This document shows positions 899-57,250 of a stretch of 64,000 nucleotides of DNA, piece after piece (positions within the stretch are counted from its first letter, which is position 1; the number at the start of each line of letters is the position of its first letter). The position numbers were made by a program, and so were the translations under genes. Location: IMG/VR virus record IMGVR_UViG_3300023218_000062. The stretch is one strand, 5' to 3'. Source of the stretch: a virus. Taxonomy: Duplodnaviria; Caudoviricetes. The notes under the pieces are model-generated. The model was given only the letters and a program-made list of their open reading frames with translations. It was not told the DNA's origin and ran no database searches.

Positions 899-2403
899 CA
901 ATTATTATAATGTCTGCAGAAGAGTTATATTTTCTAACCGAAAAATACCCCCCAAGACGCAGCACATCTAATGTGCGTATAAAATATCCTAAAGAATACG
1001 AAAAACTAATAGAATTAACAAGTTTCTTACCTGATACTGCAACAACATCCCAACGCTTATGGCATGTTCGCCATGATAAATTTGAATTCCCTATATGTGA
1101 ACATGAAGATTGTATTAAACCCACAAAATGGACTCCATCATATTCAGATTATGCACGCTTTTGCTCTACAAGATGCTTCAATAAAAATAAAACAAAGAAT
1201 GCAGAAATTAACAAACATCGTAAAAACATAGAAAAGTACGGTGAAAACTATGAAGATTTGACGACATTAGATAAAATGAAACTAACTAATGTTAAACGAT
1301 ATGGTGTGGATAACCCATTTAAAAATGTCAATAGGATACGAAAAAGAAATAATGAAAAATATGGATGTGATTTTCATTTTCAGCAACATTTATCCGAAGA
1401 CTCTTTGAGTAAATTGAATGATAAAGAATGGTTAGTTGAAATGAATCATAATCAGAAACGTAGTTGTGTAGAAATTTCAGAAAAATTAGAGGTTAATAAT
1501 TCTACAGTAAATAAAGCAATGTATAGACTAGGGCTTATACCTAGTTATCTCTATTCATCAAGTTACTCTGAGAAACAATTAGCAACATATTTAAAAGATC
1601 AGCATATTACAGTAGTCGAAAATGATAGGTCTGTCATAGCCCCGTTAGAACTGGATATTATGCTACCAGATTACAATCTAGCGATAGAATATTGTGGATT
1701 GTACTGGCATAATGAACTGCACAAAGATAATAATTATCATGAAAATAAGTACAAAAAATGTAAAGAGATAGGAATTGATTTATTAACCATATATGAAGAT
1801 GAATGGCATGATAAATCTGAATTAATAAAAAAGATGATAATGCATCGAATAGGAATGAATACAGCTACTAAAATATACGCTAGAAGTTGTAAAATAGCTG
1901 AGGCGTGTTCAATGGATAAAAAAGAATTCTTTGATAATACGCACATTCAAGGAAATGGCCCAAGTTCTATTAATGCAGGATTATATCATAATGGTAGTTT
2001 AGTGGCTTGTGTGGGGCTGATAAGAACTAAAAATGAAAAAATGGTATTGAATAGATTTTCTACAAAATATATTGTCCCCGGAGCATTTTCGAGATTGTTA
2101 AAATATATATTAAATAAGTATAAACCAAGCGAAATAATAACATTTGCGGATCTTAGATGGGGAGATGGGAAATTATATCAAGCTAATGGTTTTACATTAG
2201 ATAAAAAACTAAAACCTGATTATTATTATGTTTATCAAAATAAACGATTTCATAAATTTAATTTTAGGCATAACAAACTCAAAAAACTATTATCTTATTA
2301 TGATAATGATAAAACTGAACATGAAAATTGCGTAAACAACAATATTTTCCGAATATATGATTGTGGAAAATATAGATACGTTTTAGGAAATGACTATAAA
2401 TAG
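892..2403 (+). CDS. Free-standing homing-endonuclease-like protein (Hef/Vsr-like PD-(D/E)xK) with C-terminal Mom/GNAT-like domain; start may be ATG 910
   Basis: Zn-finger CEHEDC...CSTRC, YGVDNPF-type repeats, HTH-like segment, SxxE...ELDIMLPDYNLAIEYCGLYWH, IYEDEW, then RFST..PGAFSRLL...TFADLRWGDGKLYQANGF. Confidence 0.75.
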   Translation: MCSIIIMSAEELYFLTEKYPPRRSTSNVRIKYPKEYEKLIELTSFLPDTATTSQRLWHVRHDKFEFPICEHEDCIKPTKWTPSYSDYARFCSTRCFNKNKTKNAEINKHRKNIEKYGENYEDLTTLDKMKLTNVKRYGVDNPFKNVNRIRKRNNEKYGCDFHFQQHLSEDSLSKLNDKEWLVEMNHNQKRSCVEISEKLEVNNSTVNKAMYRLGLIPSYLYSSSYSEKQLATYLKDQHITVVENDRSVIAPLELDIMLPDYNLAIEYCGLYWHNELHKDNNYHENKYKKCKEIGIDLLTIYEDEWHDKSELIKKMIMHRIGMNTATKIYARSCKIAEACSMDKKEFFDNTHIQGNGPSSINAGLYHNGSLVACVGLIRTKNEKMVLNRFSTKYIVPGAFSRLLKYILNKYKPSEIITFADLRWGDGKLYQANGFTLDKKLKPDYYYVYQNKRFHKFNFRHNKLKKLLSYYDNDKTEHENCVNNNIFRIYDCGKYRYVLGNDYK

Positions 2404-4243: not shown

Positions 4244-4301
4244 CCAATAATAGTGTGTAAAAACATAATAGTTAATAACAATAATAAAGGAGACTATAAA
4301 A

Positions 4302-5741
4302 ATGGACGATAAACAAACACTAGTAGAAAATTGGAATGAGACCAAGGATGTCCTTCTTAGCGGGCTTAAGCCTTCACAGAAAGAAATCGTTGGGCCTCTT
4401 CTAGAAAACCAGCGCAAGCATATGTTGAATGAATCTGCTGCACAGGGTGCGGTACAATCTCATGATGTAGCAAACTTTCGTAAAACATTGCTTCCGATGA
4501 TTCGCCGTATTATTCCCGGAACAATCGGGAGTGAAATCGTAGGTCTTCAGCCTATGTCAGGACCTGTATCACTTGTTTATACGCTGAGATACAAGTACGA
4601 AGAAGATATGACTCATAATCCTGATCGTTCACCATTTGGTGGATTTGATATCGAACCGGGGGATGAAGCTTTTGGAAATGACAAGTTGATTCGTCAGTTC
4701 TATGCTGGACAGGTTGCAGAATCAGGTACACCATTTGAAGGTATTGATCAAACTGCAGGGGCTTCTGGTATTGCAGGGCCAAATGCTGCTGAAGCTGATA
4801 TTGACGCTGATACAGCCGATGGTCAGGGTTGGCACTCTGAAGAAGACGTAACCACATATGAAACTGGAACTACACTATTCGGTGAGCCAGTTGGTGGATC
4901 GTTGAAGGGTGGTTCTGGTAGCTTGATAGAAGGTTCAGGCGGACGTAAGATGACCCTAGAGATCATCAACCAAGCCGTTGAAGCTCATACCCGTAAGCTA
5001 CAAGCAGGTTGGACAATGGAAGCAATGCAGGACATGGATAGCCAGCATGGTATCGATGTTGAGTCAGAGCTTACCAAGGCACTATCTGCTGAAATCGTGC
5101 AGGAAATTGATGCTGAAATCATCACTGACCTTCTTTCACTAGCAGGAACAGTCAGAACATATGATTTTAACGCAACAGGTGGTTCTAATGGTTATGCACC
5201 AGCCTTCGTTGGTGACCGTTTCGCTAACCTAGGCGTTCGTATCAACGAAGTTGCAAATGAGATTGGCCGTAAGACACGTCGTGGAGCGGGTAACTATATC
5301 GTTGTATCACCAATGATTGTTTCTGTTCTACAGTCTGCAGCTAAAGCAGTATTCGCTCCAGCAGTTGAAGGTAGCTTCAAAGGACCCAACAACACATATC
5401 TAGCCGGTATTCTAAACGGTCAGATTAAGGTCTACAGCTACTTGTGGAACGCTGCACAGCCAACTGATGGTGAAGTATTTAGTGCAGGTCAGGGTCTTGG
5501 AAATGATCAGGTCCTAGTTGGATACAAGGGTGGTAACGGTGAAGTAGATGCCGGTTACTGGTATGCACCTTACATCCCACTGATGAGTACAGGCGTTGTT
5601 GTTAACCCAGTTACCTTCCAGCCTGTAATGAGTCTAATGACCCGTTACGGTAAGGTTGCTCTAACTGACACGACAACATCTCTCGGGAATTCTGCGGACT
5701 ACTATGGTAAAATTAATATTACTAACCTAGCATTCATTTAA
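4302..5741 (+). CDS. gp23: Major capsid protein (T4 gp23-like)
   Basis: LLPMIRRIIP, IVGLQPMSGP, RKLQAGWTMEAMQD, GHGIDVESEL-like, YAPYIPL and MTRYG motifs. Confidence 0.97.
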   Translation: MDDKQTLVENWNETKDVLLSGLKPSQKEIVGPLLENQRKHMLNESAAQGAVQSHDVANFRKTLLPMIRRIIPGTIGSEIVGLQPMSGPVSLVYTLRYKYEEDMTHNPDRSPFGGFDIEPGDEAFGNDKLIRQFYAGQVAESGTPFEGIDQTAGASGIAGPNAAEADIDADTADGQGWHSEEDVTTYETGTTLFGEPVGGSLKGGSGSLIEGSGGRKMTLEIINQAVEAHTRKLQAGWTMEAMQDMDSQHGIDVESELTKALSAEIVQEIDAEIITDLLSLAGTVRTYDFNATGGSNGYAPAFVGDRFANLGVRINEVANEIGRKTRRGAGNYIVVSPMIVSVLQSAAKAVFAPAVEGSFKGPNNTYLAGILNGQIKVYSYLWNAAQPTDGEVFSAGQGLGNDQVLVGYKGGNGEVDAGYWYAPYIPLMSTGVVVNPVTFQPVMSLMTRYGKVALTDTTTSLGNSADYYGKINITNLAFI

Positions 5742-5875: not shown

Positions 5876-7483
5876 ATGAAAAAAGAATATTATGATTATA
5901 TTGTTAACGAAATAAAACTAAGGCCCAAGAATATAGATTTGGGCACAAATAATGTACAGGATATAGAATGTCTTTTATGTGGTAACACATTTAAGGCAGG
6001 CGTGAAAGGTAAGGTAAATAATTATAGAAAACATGGGATGAAAGGGTGTAAAGAATGTACTTCAATCCAAAGATATGAAAATATAAGAAATGATAGAATA
6101 AAAGAATTAGAGGAAAAATTTGAGCTATATAATATTGACCCTAAGACTGTAAATAATATGTCTATGGTTAAAGTTCGCAATAAAAAATGTGGTCACTTTT
6201 TTAAAGTAAAATACGGAAATCTATTAAATCGTGACGTAAATTGCCCCATATGCAACACAGAACGAAAAAGAGAGCAATTTAGACAATTTAATGACGAGCG
6301 CCATGAAGAGTCATACTTATTGAAAGAAGGTTTCGACGCATATAAACAGAAAGTGTATAAGTTCACTAGAGAAACATATAGAAAACATAAAGACAAGATC
6401 AATCCTGAGAACCATACAAGAGTATTAAGTGGTGAGAAAGGCTACCATTTAGATCATATCATATCTGTAAGAAATTCCTTTGATTTAGGAGTCCCACCAG
6501 AAGTATGTGCAGATTATAGAAATATGCGCATGGTGAAATGGAAGGATAATAATAAAAAGTGGAAGCGCTCTTCTCTTAGAATACCAGAACCCTATTATCC
6601 ATATGTTAATAATACATCAGATGAATTTATAAAAATAATGAACAATTCTGTAAAAACAGATTTTAATGCATATGTAGATTTCTCTAAATTCATGCTGACC
6701 CTATATAATGAAAAGGAAAAATTTGGTATATATTACGCTCCACTTTCTACTAATACACAGCAGATATTAGGCTCTAAGAATTATTTTAAGCAGATGAAGG
6801 AATACTTTGCTGAAAAAAGTATCACATTATTAATAATATTTGAAGATGAATGGATCAAGAATAGATTATTAGTTATCGACAAAATACAACATTATATGAA
6901 CCAGAGTGAAAAGACTACCATATATGCTAGAAAATGTGAAATACAGGAAATAGGAGTAACTGATAAGAATAGTTTTTTGAATGCAAATCACATACAGGGT
7001 ACTTGTGTAAGTCAAATAAATTTGGGGGCCTTTCATGATGGAAAATTGGTAGCAGTTATGACATTTTCTAAGCCTAGAATATTGATGAATAAAAAAGAGC
7101 AAGCTGGAGGCGTGTATGAACTTGCGAGATTTGCGACAGATGTACAATATCGTATACCGGGAATTGCCTCTAAATTGTTGAAACATTTTCAAAGAAACTA
7201 TAATTATAGTGAGATATATTCATATGCAGATAGGCGCTGGTCCGATGGTAACCTTTATGAAGTATTGGGATTTGAGAAAACAATTGTCAACCCACCAAAT
7301 TATCATTATATTATAAACAACCAACGAAAACACAGATGGGGTTATCGAAAGGATGCTTTGAAGGAGAAATTCCCGGAGAGATATAATAAAGAGTTGACAG
7401 AATATCAAAATATGCTTGAAATGGGATATGATAGAATATGGGATTCTGGTTCGATAAAATATGCAATATATAATAGTTATTAA
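5876..7483 (+). CDS. Homing-endonuclease-like protein: Zn ribbons + HNH-like motif + degenerate PD-(D/E)xK + Mom/GNAT-like C-terminus
   Basis: CLLCG/CKEC/CPIC; YHLDHIISVRNSF...NMRM..W.DNNKK; IIFEDEW; YELARFA..PGIASKLLKHF...SYADRRWSDGNLYEVLGF. Confidence 0.75.
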   Translation: MKKEYYDYIVNEIKLRPKNIDLGTNNVQDIECLLCGNTFKAGVKGKVNNYRKHGMKGCKECTSIQRYENIRNDRIKELEEKFELYNIDPKTVNNMSMVKVRNKKCGHFFKVKYGNLLNRDVNCPICNTERKREQFRQFNDERHEESYLLKEGFDAYKQKVYKFTRETYRKHKDKINPENHTRVLSGEKGYHLDHIISVRNSFDLGVPPEVCADYRNMRMVKWKDNNKKWKRSSLRIPEPYYPYVNNTSDEFIKIMNNSVKTDFNAYVDFSKFMLTLYNEKEKFGIYYAPLSTNTQQILGSKNYFKQMKEYFAEKSITLLIIFEDEWIKNRLLVIDKIQHYMNQSEKTTIYARKCEIQEIGVTDKNSFLNANHIQGTCVSQINLGAFHDGKLVAVMTFSKPRILMNKKEQAGGVYELARFATDVQYRIPGIASKLLKHFQRNYNYSEIYSYADRRWSDGNLYEVLGFEKTIVNPPNYHYIINNQRKHRWGYRKDALKEKFPERYNKELTEYQNMLEMGYDRIWDSGSIKYAIYNSY

Positions 7484-17546: not shown

Positions 17547-19253
17547 ATGGTATTTACAAGATTTGAAAATATGGAAGATTTTTTAGCTAAGTATAAAGCT
17601 GCGCATAAGTCAAAACTTAAAATTGAAGAATTGGCTTATATAATGAATGTAAAGCCTGATACTATAGCCAGAAGAAAAATAACAGTCAAACATCATATGG
17701 GAGTTGAACTTCCGCAATTAAAAAGGTATGGGGGAGATTTAAAGAAAGTAAATTCTGTTATACCGTCAGAAGAGAGTAATGAAAAATTTTGTAGAGAATT
17801 AGCCAAACTGGAAGAAGCAAACAAAAGGTTTGTAGTTGAAGAAAAGAGAGAAAAACGTAAAATTTATGTTATAACGTCAGCCCAAAATGCCACTCCGATA
17901 TTTACAAGCTTTCTAGATTGTATAAAGGTTTATCTCAGGGAACGGAACGCCGAACTTATGGTTATTCCTAATAGATATCGAAACCCGACATCAATATGGT
18001 CTGATATGAATAAAGACAATGAATGGTGGGATCACCGAATTCAAAAATATTTGGTCGAAAAAAGAGTTAAACTCAACAACAATATTGATATAATGGGGAA
18101 TATAAAAATACAACCCACTGCAGTTAACCCATTAAGTGGTTTTGAAACTTATACCGGAGAGTCTTCTGCCATATTTGGACATCCGTCAATTCAATTGAAG
18201 AGTGTTCCAACTCCAGCCAAATCCATGCCTAAAATATTATCTACTACAGGTTCAATAACACAACCTAACTATACAGATAGTAAAGCGGGACACAAAGGAG
18301 AATTTAACCACTGTTATGCAGGGACTATTGTGGAAATAGATGGTGACGCTTTTTATACTAGACATATTCATGCAAATGATGATGGTGAATTTTATGATTT
18401 AGATCGTTATTATACTGCGGATGGATCTCGTAAAACAGATTCGATTCCTGCACTTATAACGGGAGATATACATGCAGTATTTCATGATGAAAATGTAGAA
18501 AAGGCAACATATACCAACGACGATTCTATAGTTAACACACTAAAACCAGAAAATTGGGTTATTCATGATTTAGAGGATTTTTATTCTAGAAATCATCACC
18601 ATAGAGACAATGATATATTAGCATTTGGAAAGCATCATTTTAAAAAACGGGATAATGTTGAAGAAAGCCTACAAATTTCAGCAGATTTCGTTGATAAACA
18701 TTCCAGACCTTTTATGCAAAATATAATTGTTAGGTCTAATCATGATGAGGCTTTTGATCGGTGGTTAAAAGAGGCTGATCCTAAAAAAGATCCAGAAAAT
18801 GCACTTTTTTATCATTATATGAAATATTATCAATATAAAAATGTGGTAGAAACACCCACTAGCTATAAAACCATAGATGCATTTGAATTTTGGTGTAAAA
18901 ATCCAGAGTCGTGTAGAGGATTAGCAAATATAGAAAATACTACATTTCTTAGTAGAGATGAGAGAGATCCTAAAAGAGTTATAAAAGGAATAGAAATAGG
19001 TTACCATGGTGATAAGGGGCCTAATGGAACACGGGGGAATTTAAGTAATCTATCTAAAATGGGACCCAAAATTATTATAGGTCACAGTCATACCCCCGGA
19101 ATATTACATGGAACATATCAAGTGGGGGTCAGTGCCAGAATAGATTTGGAATATGCTTCTGGTCCTTCAAGCTGGCTTCATACACATTGCTTGATATACC
19201 CCGATGGTCATAGGACGCTAATACATATAGTAAAGGGAAAATGGAGATTATAA
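17547..19253 (+). CDS. Calcineurin-like metallophosphoesterase with N-terminal HTH-like segment
   Basis: GDIH, HDLED, SNHD, GYHGD, GHSH motifs. Confidence 0.8.
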   Translation: MVFTRFENMEDFLAKYKAAHKSKLKIEELAYIMNVKPDTIARRKITVKHHMGVELPQLKRYGGDLKKVNSVIPSEESNEKFCRELAKLEEANKRFVVEEKREKRKIYVITSAQNATPIFTSFLDCIKVYLRERNAELMVIPNRYRNPTSIWSDMNKDNEWWDHRIQKYLVEKRVKLNNNIDIMGNIKIQPTAVNPLSGFETYTGESSAIFGHPSIQLKSVPTPAKSMPKILSTTGSITQPNYTDSKAGHKGEFNHCYAGTIVEIDGDAFYTRHIHANDDGEFYDLDRYYTADGSRKTDSIPALITGDIHAVFHDENVEKATYTNDDSIVNTLKPENWVIHDLEDFYSRNHHHRDNDILAFGKHHFKKRDNVEESLQISADFVDKHSRPFMQNIIVRSNHDEAFDRWLKEADPKKDPENALFYHYMKYYQYKNVVETPTSYKTIDAFEFWCKNPESCRGLANIENTTFLSRDERDPKRVIKGIEIGYHGDKGPNGTRGNLSNLSKMGPKIIIGHSHTPGILHGTYQVGVSARIDLEYASGPSSWLHTHCLIYPDGHRTLIHIVKGKWRL

Positions 19254-19268: not shown

Positions 19269-20197
19269 ATGAATAAAGTAGGAAAAAATTTATATCATGT
19301 AAAAGTAGACTTCTCTGCTAGTTGGGAAAAAACGCCAATTACTAAAAAGGAAAAATATTTAGATAGTTTACGACGGAGTTTAAAACACAATTTTCCAGAG
19401 TACTCGTGGATAGTGACGGATGATAGGATAAGCATAGAAAGTATTTCTCCAACCGACGCACCAGAACTTTATGAAGTGGATGAATTATACAACCATCAAC
19501 AGCTTATGTTAGATAACATGAAATCTGATGGTAATACTATTATTGAAACGTCTAGACGATCTATACCCTGCTGAAATATATTAAATATATATTAGAACAT
19601 AACGAAGGCTATCTTATTCGGTACAACGGACCAAATTCATATTTTACTAGTGGTACATTTCAAAAACTAGAGAACCTGTTAAGGTCTGATACGACTATCT
19701 TTTCCCCGCCTGATTCGGAATATAAAATAATAAAAAATGAACTGAGTTATAGGGGTAACACCGTAAGAACACAATCTGGTAATGATAATGGTGACATTAG
19801 GGGAATGCGATATAATGGAGTAATAGACATTTATGATAATGTACGTATAGATAATAAATTTTTTACTAAGTTAAGCGACAAACCAATTGTAGAATCTTCA
19901 TGTGATGGAAATCATAAAATTATATGTATGCGTACTGGAACCCCTGATAGTTTATATAGAAAAGCACTATTAACTGGAGAATTAGGTAATATAAAATTCA
20001 AGAACAAATTGAAATTAGATTATACTGAGTTAGATTTATTAAATGATAGAGAAAGTGACATACTAAAACTTTCAGATAATAGAAAATATGAACACCTTAA
20101 ATCTACATTGGGAGAAGAAAATTTTGAGCAAGAATATGGTTTAAAATTGGAGTTTTCTAATATCTCGCCATATTATTATGCTAAAACAAAATTTTAA
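19269..20197 (+). pseudogene. Hypothetical gene apparently broken by frameshift(s) near 19545-19575
   Basis: ORF 19269-19574 overlaps a second frame open from 19556 without ATG and continuous with ORF 19805-20197. Confidence 0.45.
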
Positions 20198-20278
20198 AGT
20201 CTTCTCTTTAAGGTCTTCTCTTTAAAGTCGTTTATTTAAAACAATAATAAATATCTGTGACCCTTCATAGATATTTGC

Positions 20279-20899
20279 ATGAGTAGACGTAGAGACCCTA
20301 GATTAAAAAAAGCACATGAAGAAATAGAATTTGATCAGAGTATGGTCAGAGAACTCATGCGCTGTTCTACTGATCCAAAGTATTTTATAAAAAATTATAT
20401 CAAGGTTAAACACCCCAAAAGGGGTAAAATTCCTTTTGCATTGTATGACTATCAGGAAGAAATGGTAGATCTTTATAATAGTGATGATGATGTAATTATT
20501 ATGAGTGCCAGACAAACAGGTAAAACCGAATCAATTTGTGCCTATCTTCTTTGGTATGCAATATTTAATGAAGATGTAACAGTTTTGGTAGTATCTAATA
20601 ACTCTACTAATGCGATGGAAATTATTTCAAAAGTTCAATATGCATATAAAGAATTGGATAATTGGATTAAACCCGGAATTGATGATGATTCATGGAACAA
20701 GCACGAATGTAAATTTGATAATGGCTCAAGGATAGTTTCTACTACTACCACTGAAGATTCTGGCCGAGGTATGGCGATATCGTTATTGTATTGTCATCAT
20801 AAAGATTCTACTGTTACTGTACGAGATAAATTGACTGGCGAGGTTAAAGAGATTACACTAGAAAAGCTTTATGATGATTTGTCTAATGGAAAAGAGTGA
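20279..20899 (+). CDS. terL: Terminase large subunit, piece 1 (171-aa N-extein + 35-aa split-intein N-fragment)
   Basis: Walker A ARQTGKT; ...GRGMAISLLY then intein block A CHHKDSTVTVRDK.TGE.KEITLEKLYDDL from nt 20792. Confidence 0.92.
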   Translation: MSRRRDPRLKKAHEEIEFDQSMVRELMRCSTDPKYFIKNYIKVKHPKRGKIPFALYDYQEEMVDLYNSDDDVIIMSARQTGKTESICAYLLWYAIFNEDVTVLVVSNNSTNAMEIISKVQYAYKELDNWIKPGIDDDSWNKHECKFDNGSRIVSTTTTEDSGRGMAISLLYCHHKDSTVTVRDKLTGEVKEITLEKLYDDLSNGKE

Positions 20900-22526
20900 A
20901 ATAATAGAATATATTGAAAAAAAGAGGAAAATATCAAACAAATTTACCAAACCTCCTAAAGAATTTGTTGATAGTTTAAAAAGACATACGTCGCATTTAA
21001 AAATTTGTGATAGAACGCCAGTAACTGCACAACTCATATGGCATTTTGAATATAATAAAGACACGCCATCCTGTCAAGAATGTGGTGTTAAAAATGTTAA
21101 ATGGAATGAAGCAAAAAGAAATTATAGATCTTTTTGCTCGCCAAAATGCGCAAATAACAACAAGCATAAAAAAGAAAAAATAAAAAAAACCCAAGAAGAA
21201 AATGGGGGACATCCCTCTATCAGACCTGAAGTACAGAAACGATCAAAAGAAACTAATATGGTTAGATATGGAACACCATATATCTTAAAAAATAAAAGCA
21301 TACGAGCTAAAGCAATTAAAACTAATTTAGAAAGATATGGTTTCCCATCTTATACCCAAACACCTAAAGCACGAAAGGAAAAAAGTGAATGGCTGAAAGA
21401 CAACCCAGATCACATGAAATTAATGCACCAAAAATCTAAAGAATATAAACAAACAGAAGAATATAAAAATAATTATAGGGATACATGTATAAAAAGGTTA
21501 AATATAAATGTAAAGAATGAAAGCGAGTTTAAAAATTATTTAAAAAAACAACATATAGAGAATAAAAAAACCGCTACAGAGATATCTCAAGAAATAGGGA
21601 TGCATATTAGTAGTGTTTGCAAATGGTTAGGAAAGATGGATGTTGATCGTAAATATTATTACACATCAACAGAACAAAATGAAGTATATGATTTTTTAAA
21701 AGAATATGATGTAGATCTACGATCTAATGTCAGAGATGTCATCAGTGGGATAGAATTGGATATATATGCACCAGATAAAAAAATCGCAATAGAATATTGT
21801 GGGCTATATTGGCATTCTGAGATACATAAACATACAACATATCATAGAGAAAAATATTTGAAATGTAAAGAACAAGGAATAAAATTAATAACCATATTTC
21901 AGGATGAGTGGTTACATAAAAAAAATATAGTAAAAAAAATGTTATTGGCAAAACTTGGTCTTTTATCTGATACTAAATTGTATGCTAGAAATACTTATTG
22001 CAAAGGCGTCTTGGATTATAAAAATGTTGAGAATTTTTTAGAGCGAAACCACATTCAGGGGAGGTCTAGTGGATCATTTTACATAGGGCTGTTTGATGAT
22101 TCAAATGAATTAGTTGCTATTGGGGTTTTTAGGAAAAAGTCTGAATGTGAATATGAATTGACACGATATGCTACTAGTACTTTAGTTATAGGTGGATTTT
22201 CAAAAATATTGAAAGGGCTTGAACGGAAAATCGAAAAGGGTAAATCGGTTATAATTTCGACCTTTGCAGACCTCAGATATTCAGAAGGAAATCTATACCA
22301 AAAGACCGGTTTTAATTTGGTAAAAGAATTAAAACCTGATTACAGTTTTGCTAAAAGAGATATCAGAATGCATAAATTTAATATGCGAGAACTAGTACGA
22401 GAAAACTCGAAAGAGTTAGAGAATGATAACTATTCTATAAATAAAATAGCCAGCATATTAGGGTATTATAAAATATATGATTGCGGGAAACAAAAATACA
22501 CAAAAACAATCACTGGTAGAAAATAA
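20886..22526 (+). CDS. Free-standing Hef/Vsr-like endonuclease with Mom/GNAT-like C-terminus, inserted within split intein 1 of terL
   Basis: CQECG...FCSPKC Zn finger, YG repeats, HTH, ELDIYAPDKKIAIEYCGLYWH, IFQDEW, TFADLRYSEGNLYQKTGF; different frame from both flanking terL pieces. Confidence 0.8.
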   Translation: MEKSEIIEYIEKKRKISNKFTKPPKEFVDSLKRHTSHLKICDRTPVTAQLIWHFEYNKDTPSCQECGVKNVKWNEAKRNYRSFCSPKCANNNKHKKEKIKKTQEENGGHPSIRPEVQKRSKETNMVRYGTPYILKNKSIRAKAIKTNLERYGFPSYTQTPKARKEKSEWLKDNPDHMKLMHQKSKEYKQTEEYKNNYRDTCIKRLNINVKNESEFKNYLKKQHIENKKTATEISQEIGMHISSVCKWLGKMDVDRKYYYTSTEQNEVYDFLKEYDVDLRSNVRDVISGIELDIYAPDKKIAIEYCGLYWHSEIHKHTTYHREKYLKCKEQGIKLITIFQDEWLHKKNIVKKMLLAKLGLLSDTKLYARNTYCKGVLDYKNVENFLERNHIQGRSSGSFYIGLFDDSNELVAIGVFRKKSECEYELTRYATSTLVIGGFSKILKGLERKIEKGKSVIISTFADLRYSEGNLYQKTGFNLVKELKPDYSFAKRDIRMHKFNMRELVRENSKELENDNYSINKIASILGYYKIYDCGKQKYTKTITGRK

Positions 22527-23481
22527 TAGATATGAAATATTAACACCAAATGGATGGGAAGATTTTTTAGGAGTAACAAAAAATCAAAAAGATTTTGAAT
22601 CTATAGAAATAGAGACTAAATCCGGAAAAACAATTCACTCAACTAAAAATCATAGACATTGTTCAAAATCTGGTGAATATATTCCGGTTAATGAATTTAA
22701 AGAGAATGACGAAATTCATACTACCGAGGGATTAGAAAAAATAATACATATTACAGAAAAAAATCTCAGTGAGACTTATGATATATTTAAAACTGATTCT
22801 AATACTGTAATTGTGAATAAAGTATACACCCATAATTGTGACGAACTCGCATTCGTTAAGTCCAGTATACAGGAAAAGTTCTGGACATCTATATCTCCAA
22901 CTTTGGCTACGGGAGGAAAGTGTATAATATCTTCTACTCCAAATGGAAACTCAAATTTATTTGCAGAATTATGGCGGGGAGCAAATAATGAGATAAATTC
23001 GTTCAAATATAAGCATGTTCCATGGGATGCCCCACCGGGTAGGGATGAAGAATTTAAACGTCAGCAAATAGGGAAGATCGGTAAAAGAAAATGGTATCAA
23101 GAGTATGAGTGTTGCCATCCGACCTCGTTAATAGAGTTGAGCGACAATGATGAACGCATGTTTGTTAAAGTACCAATTTCTTTAGCATATGAGTGTCTAC
23201 GCAACAATAAAGATATATTTAATTTATCACCACCGTGCCTGACTGGAAAATATGTCATTTCTCCATTAGATGGAAATAAGTATTGTAGAAAAAACGGTAG
23301 ATTTTTGATGCACCTTAAGGAAAATGGATATATATCATATGAAGATTTTTTTGAAAGTTTATTCCCCCAGCACAAAAAAGTCTGTTCCTATTGTAGAAAA
23401 ACAGCTTCTTTCAACAATTCTACCATGAGTTATTTACGAACATGTGGGGATCGTGTATGTGTTGGAAAAGAAACATCTTAG
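22477..23481 (+). CDS. terL: Terminase large subunit, piece 2 (intein-1 C-fragment + 91-aa middle extein + intein-2 N-fragment)
   Basis: YEILTPNGW..F.G, T.NH, YDI...VYTHN|CDELAFV (Walker B), SSTPNG, WYQEYE|CCHPTSLIEL (second block A at nt 23110). Confidence 0.9.
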   Translation: MIAGNKNTQKQSLVENNRYEILTPNGWEDFLGVTKNQKDFESIEIETKSGKTIHSTKNHRHCSKSGEYIPVNEFKENDEIHTTEGLEKIIHITEKNLSETYDIFKTDSNTVIVNKVYTHNCDELAFVKSSIQEKFWTSISPTLATGGKCIISSTPNGNSNLFAELWRGANNEINSFKYKHVPWDAPPGRDEEFKRQQIGKIGKRKWYQEYECCHPTSLIELSDNDERMFVKVPISLAYECLRNNKDIFNLSPPCLTGKYVISPLDGNKYCRKNGRFLMHLKENGYISYEDFFESLFPQHKKVCSYCRKTASFNNSTMSYLRTCGDRVCVGKETS

Positions 23482-23538
23482 GACACCATAATTTGCAAAT
23501 GTTGGATAGTAGAGAAAATAGAAGGAAGAGTTTCAAAT

Positions 23539-24684
23539 ATGAATAACTTGGCGTTCAATGATAATAACTGGAAAATAAAATCAATCAATGGCTATGAATC
23601 TTTTACAGGAATAGCTAATATGGGAAGTAAGAAAATTTATGAAGTAAACTTTTCTGATAATACTAAAATTAAGGTTACTAAACACCACAAATTCATTAAT
23701 ACGAACCTAGATGTGATTGAAGTTATTAATTTAAAATCAGGAGACCAACTATTATCAACAAATAGCAATGTTGTTAAAATAGTCAACGGCATACATAAAA
23801 CAGATGAAAAAACAGACGTATACGATGTAATTGAGTCTTCCAGTAATATGTTTTTTTTGAATGGTGTATTAAGTCACAATTGTCGCTTTTTATCAGAAGA
23901 TCATACTCTTATTGATACCATGATCATCAACAACATTGAAAATGAAATGGATGAGAAATATAAGGATAACGGCGGAGACCCACCAGTAGCATTCAAGATT
24001 GGAGATCTTGAATTCTTTAAGAAGATAAATAAATCCATGGCATATTTAGTGTCTGTTGACGTTGCATCAGGATCAGGAAGTGACTTTTCTGTTATTGAAG
24101 TAACGGAATTTCCGAGTATGGAACAGGTGTTGGAATTTAGATCTAATAACACAAATGAAAAATTTTTATATTCCAGACTTAAGAATATTCTCCTATTTTT
24201 GCAACAAAATAGTAAAGAAGTCTATTTCTCTGTAGAGAATAATGGATTGGGTGCAAGTATATTGGCATTGTATGAATATGATGAATCACCACCGCAAAGC
24301 GCATACCTCATTTCTGATAGTAACAACAAGAGGCTAGGTCTTTCAATGTCTGAAACAACTAAACGTACAGCTAGTATGAAACTTAAAAATATGATTGAAA
24401 CAAGATCATATAAATTTTATTCTAAACAAATAATTAAAGAACTAAAGAGCTATACGCGTCAAGGCGCCAACTTTAAGGCAGAGGTGGGATCTACTGATGA
24501 CACTATATCAGCATTATTAATCCTAATGAGAATGTTAGAAGAAATGGCTGACTATAATCCATATGCGTTCGATAAGATTTATAATATAAAAGGACAGGAT
24601 GATAAACAGGAAGAATTTGATGAAGAATTTGTAGACGATCCTAAGACACTAGATGATATGCCGATGCCTATTAGTATAGCCTGA
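23539..24684 (+). CDS. terL: Terminase large subunit, piece 3 (intein-2 C-fragment + 267-aa nuclease C-extein)
   Basis: WKIKSINGYESF.G, T..H.F, VYDV...NGVLSHN|CRFLSEDHTLI; nuclease motifs VSVDVASGSGSDFS, VENNG, TDD.+SA. Confidence 0.9.
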   Translation: MNNLAFNDNNWKIKSINGYESFTGIANMGSKKIYEVNFSDNTKIKVTKHHKFINTNLDVIEVINLKSGDQLLSTNSNVVKIVNGIHKTDEKTDVYDVIESSSNMFFLNGVLSHNCRFLSEDHTLIDTMIINNIENEMDEKYKDNGGDPPVAFKIGDLEFFKKINKSMAYLVSVDVASGSGSDFSVIEVTEFPSMEQVLEFRSNNTNEKFLYSRLKNILLFLQQNSKEVYFSVENNGLGASILALYEYDESPPQSAYLISDSNNKRLGLSMSETTKRTASMKLKNMIETRSYKFYSKQIIKELKSYTRQGANFKAEVGSTDDTISALLILMRMLEEMADYNPYAFDKIYNIKGQDDKQEEFDEEFVDDPKTLDDMPMPISIA

Positions 24685-24722
24685 AGATTTATATAAATAG
24701 AACATAATATATAATGTTATGA

Positions 24723-25280
24723 ATGAAACTAGAATCTCTATTTTTATTTGAAAGGACAATGGGTTCTTTAGTATCGGTGACTAGAAACTCATTTGGTCCC
24801 GATAGAGACACTAATTCTAATGCGGTACAAGTTAAGGATGTACAATATATACCATTGGTTGAGCAAGGAATGATGCAAGTTAAAGCTAGGACCTTTAGTG
24901 GCCCTGATGCTAATGAATATCAATCTATCATATCGATAGATGATGTTGAATATATAAATGAAGAAGAATTTAATAATATGCAAGGAACGAGCGAGGTAGT
25001 ATTTGAACTTATATCTTCTGGTGGAACGCCATTTTATGTTAAAGATAATAGAACAAATAATGATGTAAAGGTTAGATGTACTTGTGAGGATTTTAGATGG
25101 AGATTTGCCAAATATAATTATAATGATCAGAGTCTACAAGGTGACCCACCAGAAGCGTATGCGAAGAAAACGGATAGACCCTCTGTGAATCCACATAATA
25201 CACCGGGAGTTTGTAAACATCTAATTAAACTTAAGAAAGAATTAGAAAGAGACGATTTTTTTAGAACAGTGTTGCAGTAA
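24723..25280 (+). CDS. SWIM-type zinc-finger protein
   Basis: VRCTCEDFRW...GVCKHL; late promoter TATAAATA at 24692. Confidence 0.65.
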   Translation: MKLESLFLFERTMGSLVSVTRNSFGPDRDTNSNAVQVKDVQYIPLVEQGMMQVKARTFSGPDANEYQSIISIDDVEYINEEEFNNMQGTSEVVFELISSGGTPFYVKDNRTNNDVKVRCTCEDFRWRFAKYNYNDQSLQGDPPEAYAKKTDRPSVNPHNTPGVCKHLIKLKKELERDDFFRTVLQ

Positions 25281-56730: not shown

Positions 56731-57250
56731 GCGTTGCAGGGTGAGGTTAAAACCCTCTCCAAAGCCACAATACATTAGAAGTAACCTAGGCTCGGCTTCT
56801 GTGGCTTTCTGAGGCTTATAGGATGAATCAGAAGTGGCTTTTTGGGGAGAGTAATAAAATTGTTAAGAAATATTTAAAGAATTCGATGATATCGATTGTA
56901 AGCATGACGGACGGGAGTTCGAATCTCCCCTACTCCACCAAAAGTGGATCAATAAGTGCCAGTCGAGGGAAGATCAGGTATCTTTCCAGTATAGCAAACA
57001 AAAAAGCCTAAGACGAGAGAGGTAATGCGTCAGCAATCCCGGAAACGGGGCAATGATTGGTCCACTTCTGATGGGGTAGTACTTGGTTTCGACGGTGTGA
57101 CTGAAGATCGATGGAGAATCGTCAAGAAAGACGCAAAAATCACTTAAAGTAAGTGCAAATGATGATATATTTGCACCGGAAGCACTAGCTGCGTAAGTCC
57201 GGTTGAGGTTTGGGTGGCTCCCCCTCATTACCCAATGAGCCGCCATTTAA
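56731..57250 (+). ncRNA. ssrA: Circularly permuted (two-piece) tmRNA; acceptor piece ends 56940, coding piece starts 57073; tag ANDDIFAPEALAA (57155-57196)
   Basis: T-arm gggag-ttcgaat-ctccc and CTACTCC-A-CCA (to 56940) precede GGGGTAG...TTCGAC (57073); 7-bp acceptor stem with G3:U70; gatcgat/atcgatt P2 helix; tag frame ends LAA-stop; outer ends approximate. Confidence 0.92.
56941..57072 (+). other. 132-nt structured intervening segment of permuted tmRNA
   Basis: Closing helix aagtggatcaat/attggtccactt; hairpins gggaagat/atctttcc, gacg/cgtc, cccg-gaaa-cggg. Confidence 0.75.

Follow-up and report, generated by a model that had tools for sequence, protein, structure and literature searches.

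Here we describe the large terminase gene (terL) of a virus of the class Caudoviricetes (IMG/VR virus record IMGVR_UViG_3300023218_000062), of which one stretch of 64 kb, hereafter called the window, was analysed. All features were called computationally. In the region 20279-24684, four open reading frames (ORFs) lie head to tail on the same strand. Three of them (ORF1, ORF2 and ORF3, here called pieces 1, 2 and 3) encode parts of the large terminase (TerL) that are fused to N-terminal (IntN) or C-terminal (IntC) fragments of two split inteins, and the fourth encodes a homing endonuclease (FHE1). The gene is interrupted between pieces 1 and 2 (site 1) and between pieces 2 and 3 (site 2), and has the following features:

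20279-20899, plus strand: terL piece 1 (ORF1), 206 amino acids (aa), ending ...SLLY and then a 35-aa IntN that starts with Cys (CHHKD...), followed by a TGA stop
20279..20791, plus strand: TerL N-extein, 171 aa, from the Walker A region to ...AISLLY
20792..20899, plus strand: IntN1, 35 aa, starting with Cys1, then TGA
20871..22526, plus strand: FHE1, free-standing homing endonuclease gene, 551 aa, in a third frame
22477-23481, plus strand: terL piece 2 (ORF2), 334 aa, consisting of a 120-aa IntC (ending THN), 91 aa of terminase (CDELAF...WYQEYE) and 123 aa from a Cys onwards (CCHPT...)
22477..22836, plus strand: IntC1, 120 aa, with block B TKNH, ending THN before Cys+1
22837..23109, plus strand: TerL middle extein, 91 aa, with CDELAF (Walker B Asp-Glu) and an SSTPNG motif, ending ...WYQEYE
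23110..23880, plus strand: whole intein-2 element, 771 nt or 257 codons, from Cys1 to the terminal Asn
23110..23238, plus strand: IntN2 core, starting with Cys1, about 35-43 aa
23239..23481, plus strand: endonuclease remnant, the first ~80 aa, Cys-rich and Zn-ribbon-like, fused in frame to IntN2 and ending with TAG
23482..23538, plus strand: spacer, 57 nt or 19 sense codons, in frame with pieces 2 and 3
23539-24684, plus strand: terL piece 3 (ORF3), 381 aa, consisting of a 114-aa IntC (ending SHN) and a 267-aa C-terminal part of the terminase (CRFLSED...)
23539..23880, plus strand: IntC2, 114 aa, with block B TKHH, ending SHN before Cys+1
23881..24684, plus strand: TerL C-extein, 267 aa, with the end of the ATPase domain and the nuclease domain

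The three ORFs, their ends and their junction peptides had been described in a first-pass annotation of the window, and all are present in the sequence as given there. The exteins were joined by script (171 + 91 + 267 = 529 aa), and the product aligned over residues 1-529 with residues 1-529 of nine uninterrupted metagenomic TerLs of 529 aa, with 0 gaps, in agreement with the 529-aa T4-type TerL predicted in that annotation. The nearest of the nine, P0012, is 94.1% identical to the joined exteins; identity is 97.7% for the N-extein (P0012 residues 1-172), 95.7% for the middle extein (residues 172-263) and 90.7% for the C-extein (residues 261-529). The N-extein matches Pfam Terminase_6N (28.8 bits; cut-off 22) and the terminase large subunit family phrog_5989 (E 5e-54), and the C-extein matches the terminase large subunit family phrog_36964 (E 5e-20) and shares 42.7% identity with the TerL of Stenotrophomonas phages CM1 and RAS14. 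After joining, the Terminase_6N ATPase with its Walker A and Walker B motifs and the C-terminal nuclease domain lie in one protein with the architecture of a T4-type TerL.

Removal of the two inteins restores LLY/CDELAF, which contains Walker B, and QEYE/CRFLSED (a slash marks the splice junction). The corresponding sequences of P0012 are ISLLYCDELSFV and WYQEYECRFLSEDHTL, and in the contiguous TerLs of the phages Xoo-sp13 (Xanthomonas) and RAS14 (Stenotrophomonas) the two points of interruption are spanned by SLIYCDELAFV and QEFECRFLSSD. The comparison with the terL of relatives, which had been proposed as a check, thus places both interruptions exactly, and the Cys+1 of both inteins is the native host residue in relatives without inteins. 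P0012 matches structures of T4 gp17 over residues 7-482 (E 2e-45). Because its LLYCDE stands opposite the Walker B sequence MIYIDE of T4 gp17, site 1 divides Walker B, two residues ahead of the catalytic Asp-Glu. In the AlphaFold model of the intein-less P0012, whose confidence is low around site 1 (pLDDT <50 at residues 158-197) and moderate at site 2, site 1 would lie in a short strand and site 2 after the last helix of the ATPase part.

In both inteins, Cys1, the TxxH motif (TKNH and TKHH), the terminal His-Asn and Cys+1 are all intact, and the block B His is invariant in an alignment of middle pieces (A4). Since block B lies in the C-fragment, the split falls after block A in both cases, like that of the published TerL inteins. 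Both are thus atypically split inteins, in which a short IntN is paired with an IntC of 114-120 aa. IntN1 resembles the site-1 IntN family of other loci (pattern C...TV.VRNK.T...ITL..L), and IntN2 resembles the site-2 IntN family, its Cys being invariant at its column in 33 middle pieces. IntC2 aligns with PDB 6dsl_B ('consensus engineered intein CatC') over residues 6-113 (E 5e-6) and with gp41-1 (E 4e-4), and is 48% identical to the site-2 IntC of the related locus L024. The matches of IntC1 to PDB chains of solved split inteins are weak (DnaE 7qil, E 0.01; gp41-1 6qaz, E 0.012; CatC, E 0.11), and it groups with the site-1 IntCs of other phages at <=37% identity. Prediction of a complex between IntC2 (ORF3 residues 1-125) and IntN2 (ORF2 residues 203-250) gave 0.85, with 0.04 for the best control; in a benchmark, 51 of 78 solved complexes and 2 of 108 mismatched pairs scored that high. 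IntN2 is therefore predicted to bind IntC2.

Site 1 has the layout of a fractured gene: its intein halves flank a free-standing endonuclease gene, all on one strand. The intein halves are in different frames with 84 stops between them, and FHE1 shares its first 29 nt with piece 1 and its last 50 nt with piece 2. FHE1 matches the homing endonuclease family phrog_3339 over profile positions 26-533 of 536 (E 8e-100) and Pfam DUF7487 with 30.6 bits (cut-off 27); the PD-(D/E)xK-type model REase_MTES_1575 scores 29.5 bits, which is under its cut-off of 38.2. It is 32% identical (E 6e-70) to the site-2 endonuclease of the related locus L018. Two more members of the FHE1 family are encoded in the window, at 910-2403 (plus strand; 32% identity over 556 aa) and at 5876-7483 (plus strand; 30% over 269 aa). 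These two genes adjoin the genes for the prohead protease (220-849) and the gp23 capsid protein (4302-5741), and no intein halves lie beside them.

At site 2, the homology of IntN2 breaks off after ~43 aa. The last 80 residues of piece 2 match residues 10-89 of the L018 endonuclease with 46% identity (E 3e-26); this endonuclease, an intact protein of 506 aa, is encoded between the site-2 intein halves of that related phage. The tail also matches the N-terminus of the site-2 endonuclease of another locus, L008 (E 2e-5). A search of the tail against Pfam and a BLASTP comparison with the window's own FHE1 gave no match. That the tail is a novel domain was ruled out by its matches to the N-termini of the relatives' site-2 endonucleases. 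The first-pass annotation placed the junction at Cys1 (QEYE/C) correctly but did not note that, of the 123 aa that follow, the last 80 are the endonuclease remnant. The relative L003 (62% identity) has the same fusion of IntN2 and endonuclease, with the endonuclease broken into further ORFs and with site 1 empty. Site 2 of the window is thus a decayed fractured locus, in which the endonuclease gene has been fused to IntN2 and cut off after its Cys-rich N-terminal module. Piece 3 begins with an ATG of its own, and the purine-rich AAGGAAGAG located 8 nt before it is a putative ribosome-binding site.

The locus is present in four sequencing runs of one study, and Logan contigs of these runs were compared with positions 20000-25000. 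One contig is identical across the whole interval and may be the source of the window. Contigs of two other runs cover 20000-21416, 20734-23103, 22175-23108 and 23079-23910 with 0 differences or indels. Because the junctions recur in the contigs of other runs, neither the stops nor the changes of frame stem from errors in one assembly, and an assembly or frameshift artefact was ruled out by these contigs without indels. The three suspect points that had been listed for a check against raw reads (20880-20900, 22515-22530 and 23479-23481) were all reproduced, with contigs in place of raw reads. Contigs of the runs X2 (depth 2.5) and X3 (depth 25) contain a joint from 23109 to 23881 (minus 771 nt); since it skips exactly the 257 codons of intein 2, an allele free of intein 2 (QEYE/CRF) coexists as DNA. 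An in-frame length variant of 126 nt (21192-21317 missing), also present in X2 and X3, corresponds to one 42-aa repeat unit in the DUF7487 region of FHE1. A second strain in X3 carries 16 synonymous and 4 conservative changes in piece 1, which argues for purifying selection on this piece. No group I or group II intron family was detected in the window with Rfam, and the boundaries of the interruptions are those of inteins, so an RNA intron finds no support.

Equivalent three-piece genes are present in many diverged lineages (37-46% identity). A search of public metagenomes with the piece 2 protein gave 1018 hits; the best 120 contain ~38 clusters of 230-290 aa, of which 32 were aligned, and all 32 (~245 aa) consist of an IntC1, a middle extein and an IntN2 of 30-36 aa, with invariant junction cysteines. 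Exact look-ups of the window's piece 2 and of P0012 gave no entry. One such middle-piece protein, encoded on 14 contigs from several samples, belongs to a fully doubly fractured locus with the order TerL N-part fused to IntN1 (212 aa), endonuclease (309 aa), middle piece (245 aa), endonuclease (312 aa; DUF7487) and IntC2 fused to TerL C-part (365 aa). A scan of viral contigs with piece 2 alone gave no match, but an alignment-based scan did, and the exteins were then compared by tblastn with the 80 IMG/VR loci from that scan and with loci fetched earlier. The occupation of the two sites was as follows:

Both sites occupied: the window, L005/L006, L007-L010 and L011
Site 1 only: L012, L014/L015, L016, L019 and L026
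Site 1 occupied, site 2 not covered: L033
Site 2 only: L003, L013, L018, L024 and L045
Both sites empty: all remaining surveyed loci

The TerL of L005 (2631-6837) is in four pieces, with a third split intein at the Walker A site (PRQSGK/C ... SHN/S); a 369-aa endonuclease gene accompanies the Walker A intein, and the split inteins at sites 1 and 2 are without endonuclease genes. The layout of the window, which had been called unusual, is therefore not rare, and three-piece and even four-piece forms are widespread in metagenomes. L014 and L015 carry an in-frame, stop-free cis mini-intein of 450 nt (150 aa) exactly at site 1, and the same ORF (~4300-5340) has an IntC at the Walker A site (...SHN/TTT), from which it follows that a split intein and a cis intein can coexist in one terL.

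The ends of the inteins vary among relatives: most site-1 inteins end with His-Gln (SHQ/C), and some inteins end with TKN or SSN and lack the penultimate His, whereas those of the window end with the canonical His-Asn. These variants were seen in alignment A4, in the site-1 IntCs of L008, L011, L012, L014 and L019, and in the site-2 IntCs of L016, L026 and L008/L011. Among cultured phages, tblastn matched IntC1 and the middle extein (query 17-212; 32% identity) to genes carrying a large-terminase annotation in the Campylobacter phages CP8, CPX, NCTC12673 and CP81 and ~35 others, and the DNA of FHE1 is similar to 'Hef-like homing endonuclease' genes of the same phages, which may thus carry a site-1 split intein. 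The cultured Nitratidesulfovibrio phage SRB7757, which tblastn had suggested as a further three-piece case, was ruled out because its intein is contiguous and splices in cis.

The two inteins of the window differ considerably from each other, with 28% identity between IntC1 and IntC2. When the 20 IntCs of a tree were labelled by position (site 1, site 2 or Walker A site), no more than the minimum of two changes was required, a value as low as this being found in 0 of 200 shuffles; branch support is weak (74/62 for the site-1 group and 38/58 for the site-2 group). The closest relatives of the window's IntC1 are site-1 inteins (<=37% identity), and those of its IntC2 are site-2 inteins (48%). 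Judged by these sequences, inteins 1 and 2 are of different site-specific lineages. They also differ in charge: IntN residues 8-20 carry about +1 at site 1 (VRNK) and about -2 to -4 at site 2, and the first 16 residues of the conserved IntC strand carry about -3 to -4 at site 1 (YEILTPNGWEDFEG) and about 0 to +2 at site 2 (WKIKT...). This trend, seen in few sequences, hints at an electrostatic choice of partner. Cross-reaction, which would yield either a product of pieces 1 and 3 that lacks Walker B or a cyclised piece 2, would thereby be avoided. It is reasonably probable that phages whose terL is interrupted by two or three atypical split inteins harbour intein pairs that became mutually orthogonal by co-evolution in a shared cytoplasm, with opposite charges of the docking strands perhaps as the mechanism.

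[quoted passage not shown] This reading is based on the exact boundaries, the catalytic residues, the likeness to CatC, the predicted pairing, the reproducibility of the locus together with the empty allele, the selection on piece 1, the recurrence in other lineages, the lack of an intron family, and the lack of a backup gene, as the 64-kb window holds no second terL piece and no intein besides these. The core of the first-pass annotation, a TerL in three pieces with two split inteins, fits every sequence test that was run. Several points weigh against it. IntC2 scores 25.9 bits with Pfam Intein_splicing, under the cut-off of 35.8. The complex prediction may reflect a memory of the solved Cat structure, and it does not separate cognate from cross pairs. 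The read check consisted of assembled contigs from a single study, in which the window itself may derive from two of the four runs. No RNA run containing the locus was found. The 80-aa foreign tail on IntN2 may affect splicing. The intein-2-free allele in the same samples means that the second splice is not needed by every genome. The window covers 64 kb of a contig of ~246 kb, so that a second, intact terL may lie outside it.

If the TAG of piece 2 were read through, pieces 2 and 3 would form one precursor with a 257-aa intein that splices in cis, and only site 1 would splice in trans. This reading is favoured by the common frame of pieces 2 and 3, which are separated by one TAG (23479-23481) and 19 sense codons. 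The 257-aa stretch, with the TAG counted as a residue, scores 31.6 bits with Intein_splicing, still under 35.8, and split inteins that arose from a stop in a decaying endonuclease domain have been described (bioRxiv 10.1101/2025.01.02.630785). However, at least six other long ORFs of the window terminate with TAG, which is therefore an ordinary stop here. No tRNA gene, suppressor or otherwise, was found in the window, and a general recoding of TAG was ruled out on these two grounds. Piece 3 has its own ATG with a purine-rich stretch before it, and 19 stop-free in-frame codons are expected by chance in about one of ten cases (our estimate). Moreover, site 2 of L005, L008, L013, L018, L024 and L045 is out of frame or contains 9 to 53 stops, which indicates that the site-2 intein family is truly split. 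For these reasons, we take the shared frame as a coincidence and consider read-through very unlikely.

The three-piece gene might also be a dead or dying allele, whose lineage is non-viable or relies on a co-infecting phage with an intact terL or on a second terL in its own genome. The intein-2-free allele in the same samples, the existence of close uninterrupted TerLs, the decayed state of the site-2 endonuclease and the view of only part of the genome are compatible with this. Against it stand the intact extein motifs and intein catalytic residues, the ratio of 16 synonymous to 4 conservative strain changes in piece 1, and the presence of the same sequence at substantial depth in four runs, with contigs up to ~246 kb; the maintenance of three-piece genes in many diverged lineages is not expected of a dead allele, which makes decay a highly improbable explanation. 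Equally little weight is given to the proposal that splicing is regulatory, i.e., that conditional or competing reactions, in which IntN1 and IntC2 skip Walker B or IntN2 and IntC1 cyclise piece 2, tune or delay packaging. Since the inteins lie in catalytic motifs, the unspliced pieces must be inactive, and some promiscuity exists in this class, as the short IntN of GOS-TerL is, according to a review, exchangeable with that of AceL-TerL (PMC11766414). The pattern of presence and absence, the endonuclease genes and the empty allele are nevertheless what a selfish homing element predicts without any host function, and the 28% identity, the separate site-specific groups and the opposite charge trends suggest that cross-reaction is avoided rather than used.

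In the doubly fractured terL, two mobile split inteins of different lineages would have inserted at conserved sites, one in Walker B and the other (QEYE/C) near the end of the ATPase domain. Three polypeptides would be made: the N-extein with IntN1, the middle extein between IntC1 and IntN2 with its endonuclease stub, and the C-extein preceded by IntC2. Each short IntN would dock on its long, partly folded IntC to complete the HINT fold, and class-1 splicing would proceed by an N-S acyl shift at Cys1, trans-thioesterification to Cys+1, cyclisation of Asn and an S-N shift. The two reactions, in either order, would join the exteins into one TerL of 529 aa with a restored Walker B. Site 1 would be a classic fractured locus, where the intact free-standing endonuclease gene spreads the element, and the decay of the site-2 endonuclease to an 80-aa stub would have left intein 2 no longer mobile and polymorphic in the sampled population. 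The splicing itself, its order and the lack of cross-reaction between the pairs are what we infer from the sequence.

The order at site 1, i.e., N-part with IntN, free-standing endonuclease and IntC with C-part on the same strand, is that of the fractured genes described by Dassa, London, Stoddard, Schueler-Furman and Pietrokovski in 2009 (PMC2677866), which include one 'Terminase' locus from Lake Gatun. The host protein of that locus is gp17-like, and its IntC, with all N-terminal motifs but the first, has 122 aa as compared with 120 aa here. The endonuclease is of a non-LAGLIDADG type in both cases, Vsr-like there and similar below cut-off to a PD-(D/E)xK REase model here, which does not establish that FHE1 belongs to the Vsr-like family. 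In contrast to that locus, the gene of the window holds two elements and is in three pieces, and the endonuclease of the second element is reduced to an 80-aa stub on IntN2. The AceL-TerL, GOS-TerL and Cat inteins have IntNs of 25-37 aa, IntCs of 104-115 aa and Cys+1 (Thiel 2014; Bachmann and Mootz 2015; Stevens 2018; all as reviewed in PMC11766414). The inteins of the window resemble them in their position inside TerL, in the short IntN (35 aa and a core of ~35-43 aa), the long IntC (120 and 114 aa) and Cys+1, and CatC (PDB 6DSL) aligns over the whole length of IntC2. Unlike AceL-TerL, GOS-TerL and Cat, which were studied as single pairs, the two pairs of the window, known from their sequence, share 28% identity and lie in one gene, and IntN2 has a foreign tail.

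Inteins of the same HINT type also occur in contiguous TerLs. The TerL of Nitratidesulfovibrio phage SRB7757 (PV062637.1; L004:3254-5329; record unannotated) is a single polypeptide of 691 aa with a cis mini-intein at FIDE/C, three residues downstream of site 1 of the window, and the intein of L014/L015, which lies exactly at site 1, is likewise part of a single polypeptide that splices in cis. A full-text literature search, which many subscription papers lay outside, found no paper on a natural gene that two split inteins divide into three parts. The doubly fractured terL is thus built from known elements, and the combination is a variant rather than a new kind of system.

The genome is that of a T4-like jumbo phage from a metagenome, with a gp21-type prohead protease, the gp23 capsid protein, a DnaB-like helicase, gp32 and RecA/UvsX encoded in the window. 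The nearest cultured TerLs are those of Stenotrophomonas and Xanthomonas jumbo phages (about 42% identity), and the gene order TerL, small ORF, gp32-like single-stranded DNA-binding protein and RecA matches that of Xoo-sp13 and RAS14. The ORFs flanking terL (17547-19253, 19805-20197 and 24723-25280, all on the plus strand) gave no informative family match. Of these, the 130-aa ORF immediately upstream of terL occupies the position of the small terminase of Xoo-sp13 and has no PHROG hit. A permuted transfer-messenger RNA (tmRNA) gene at 56880-57196 (plus strand) was detected with Rfam RF04321 (97.4 bits; gathering score 47; E 1e-17) and was also called by ARAGORN, with the tag peptide ANDDIFAPEALAA; a tmRNA of the two-piece type is unusual for a phage.

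In protein engineering, orthogonal split inteins are used to join three segments. The phage locus appears to be the natural counterpart of this technique, for an essential enzyme and in many lineages, and if the reading holds, it would be the first natural case of an essential enzyme made by tandem protein trans-splicing. It would also provide a natural, pre-tested source of orthogonal inteins with short IntNs for the one-pot ligation of three or four segments, and such matched, presumably orthogonal pairs, with N-fragments short enough to be synthesised, would be useful for protein semisynthesis. Annotation pipelines will miss or misname terL in such genomes, since it shows up there as three short ORFs. 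Stages of the homing cycle are found together at this locus, with an active element at site 1, a decayed one at site 2 and, in the same samples, an allele whose site 2 is empty. If confirmed, the doubly fractured terL would mean that a gene can gather more than one split intein and survive.

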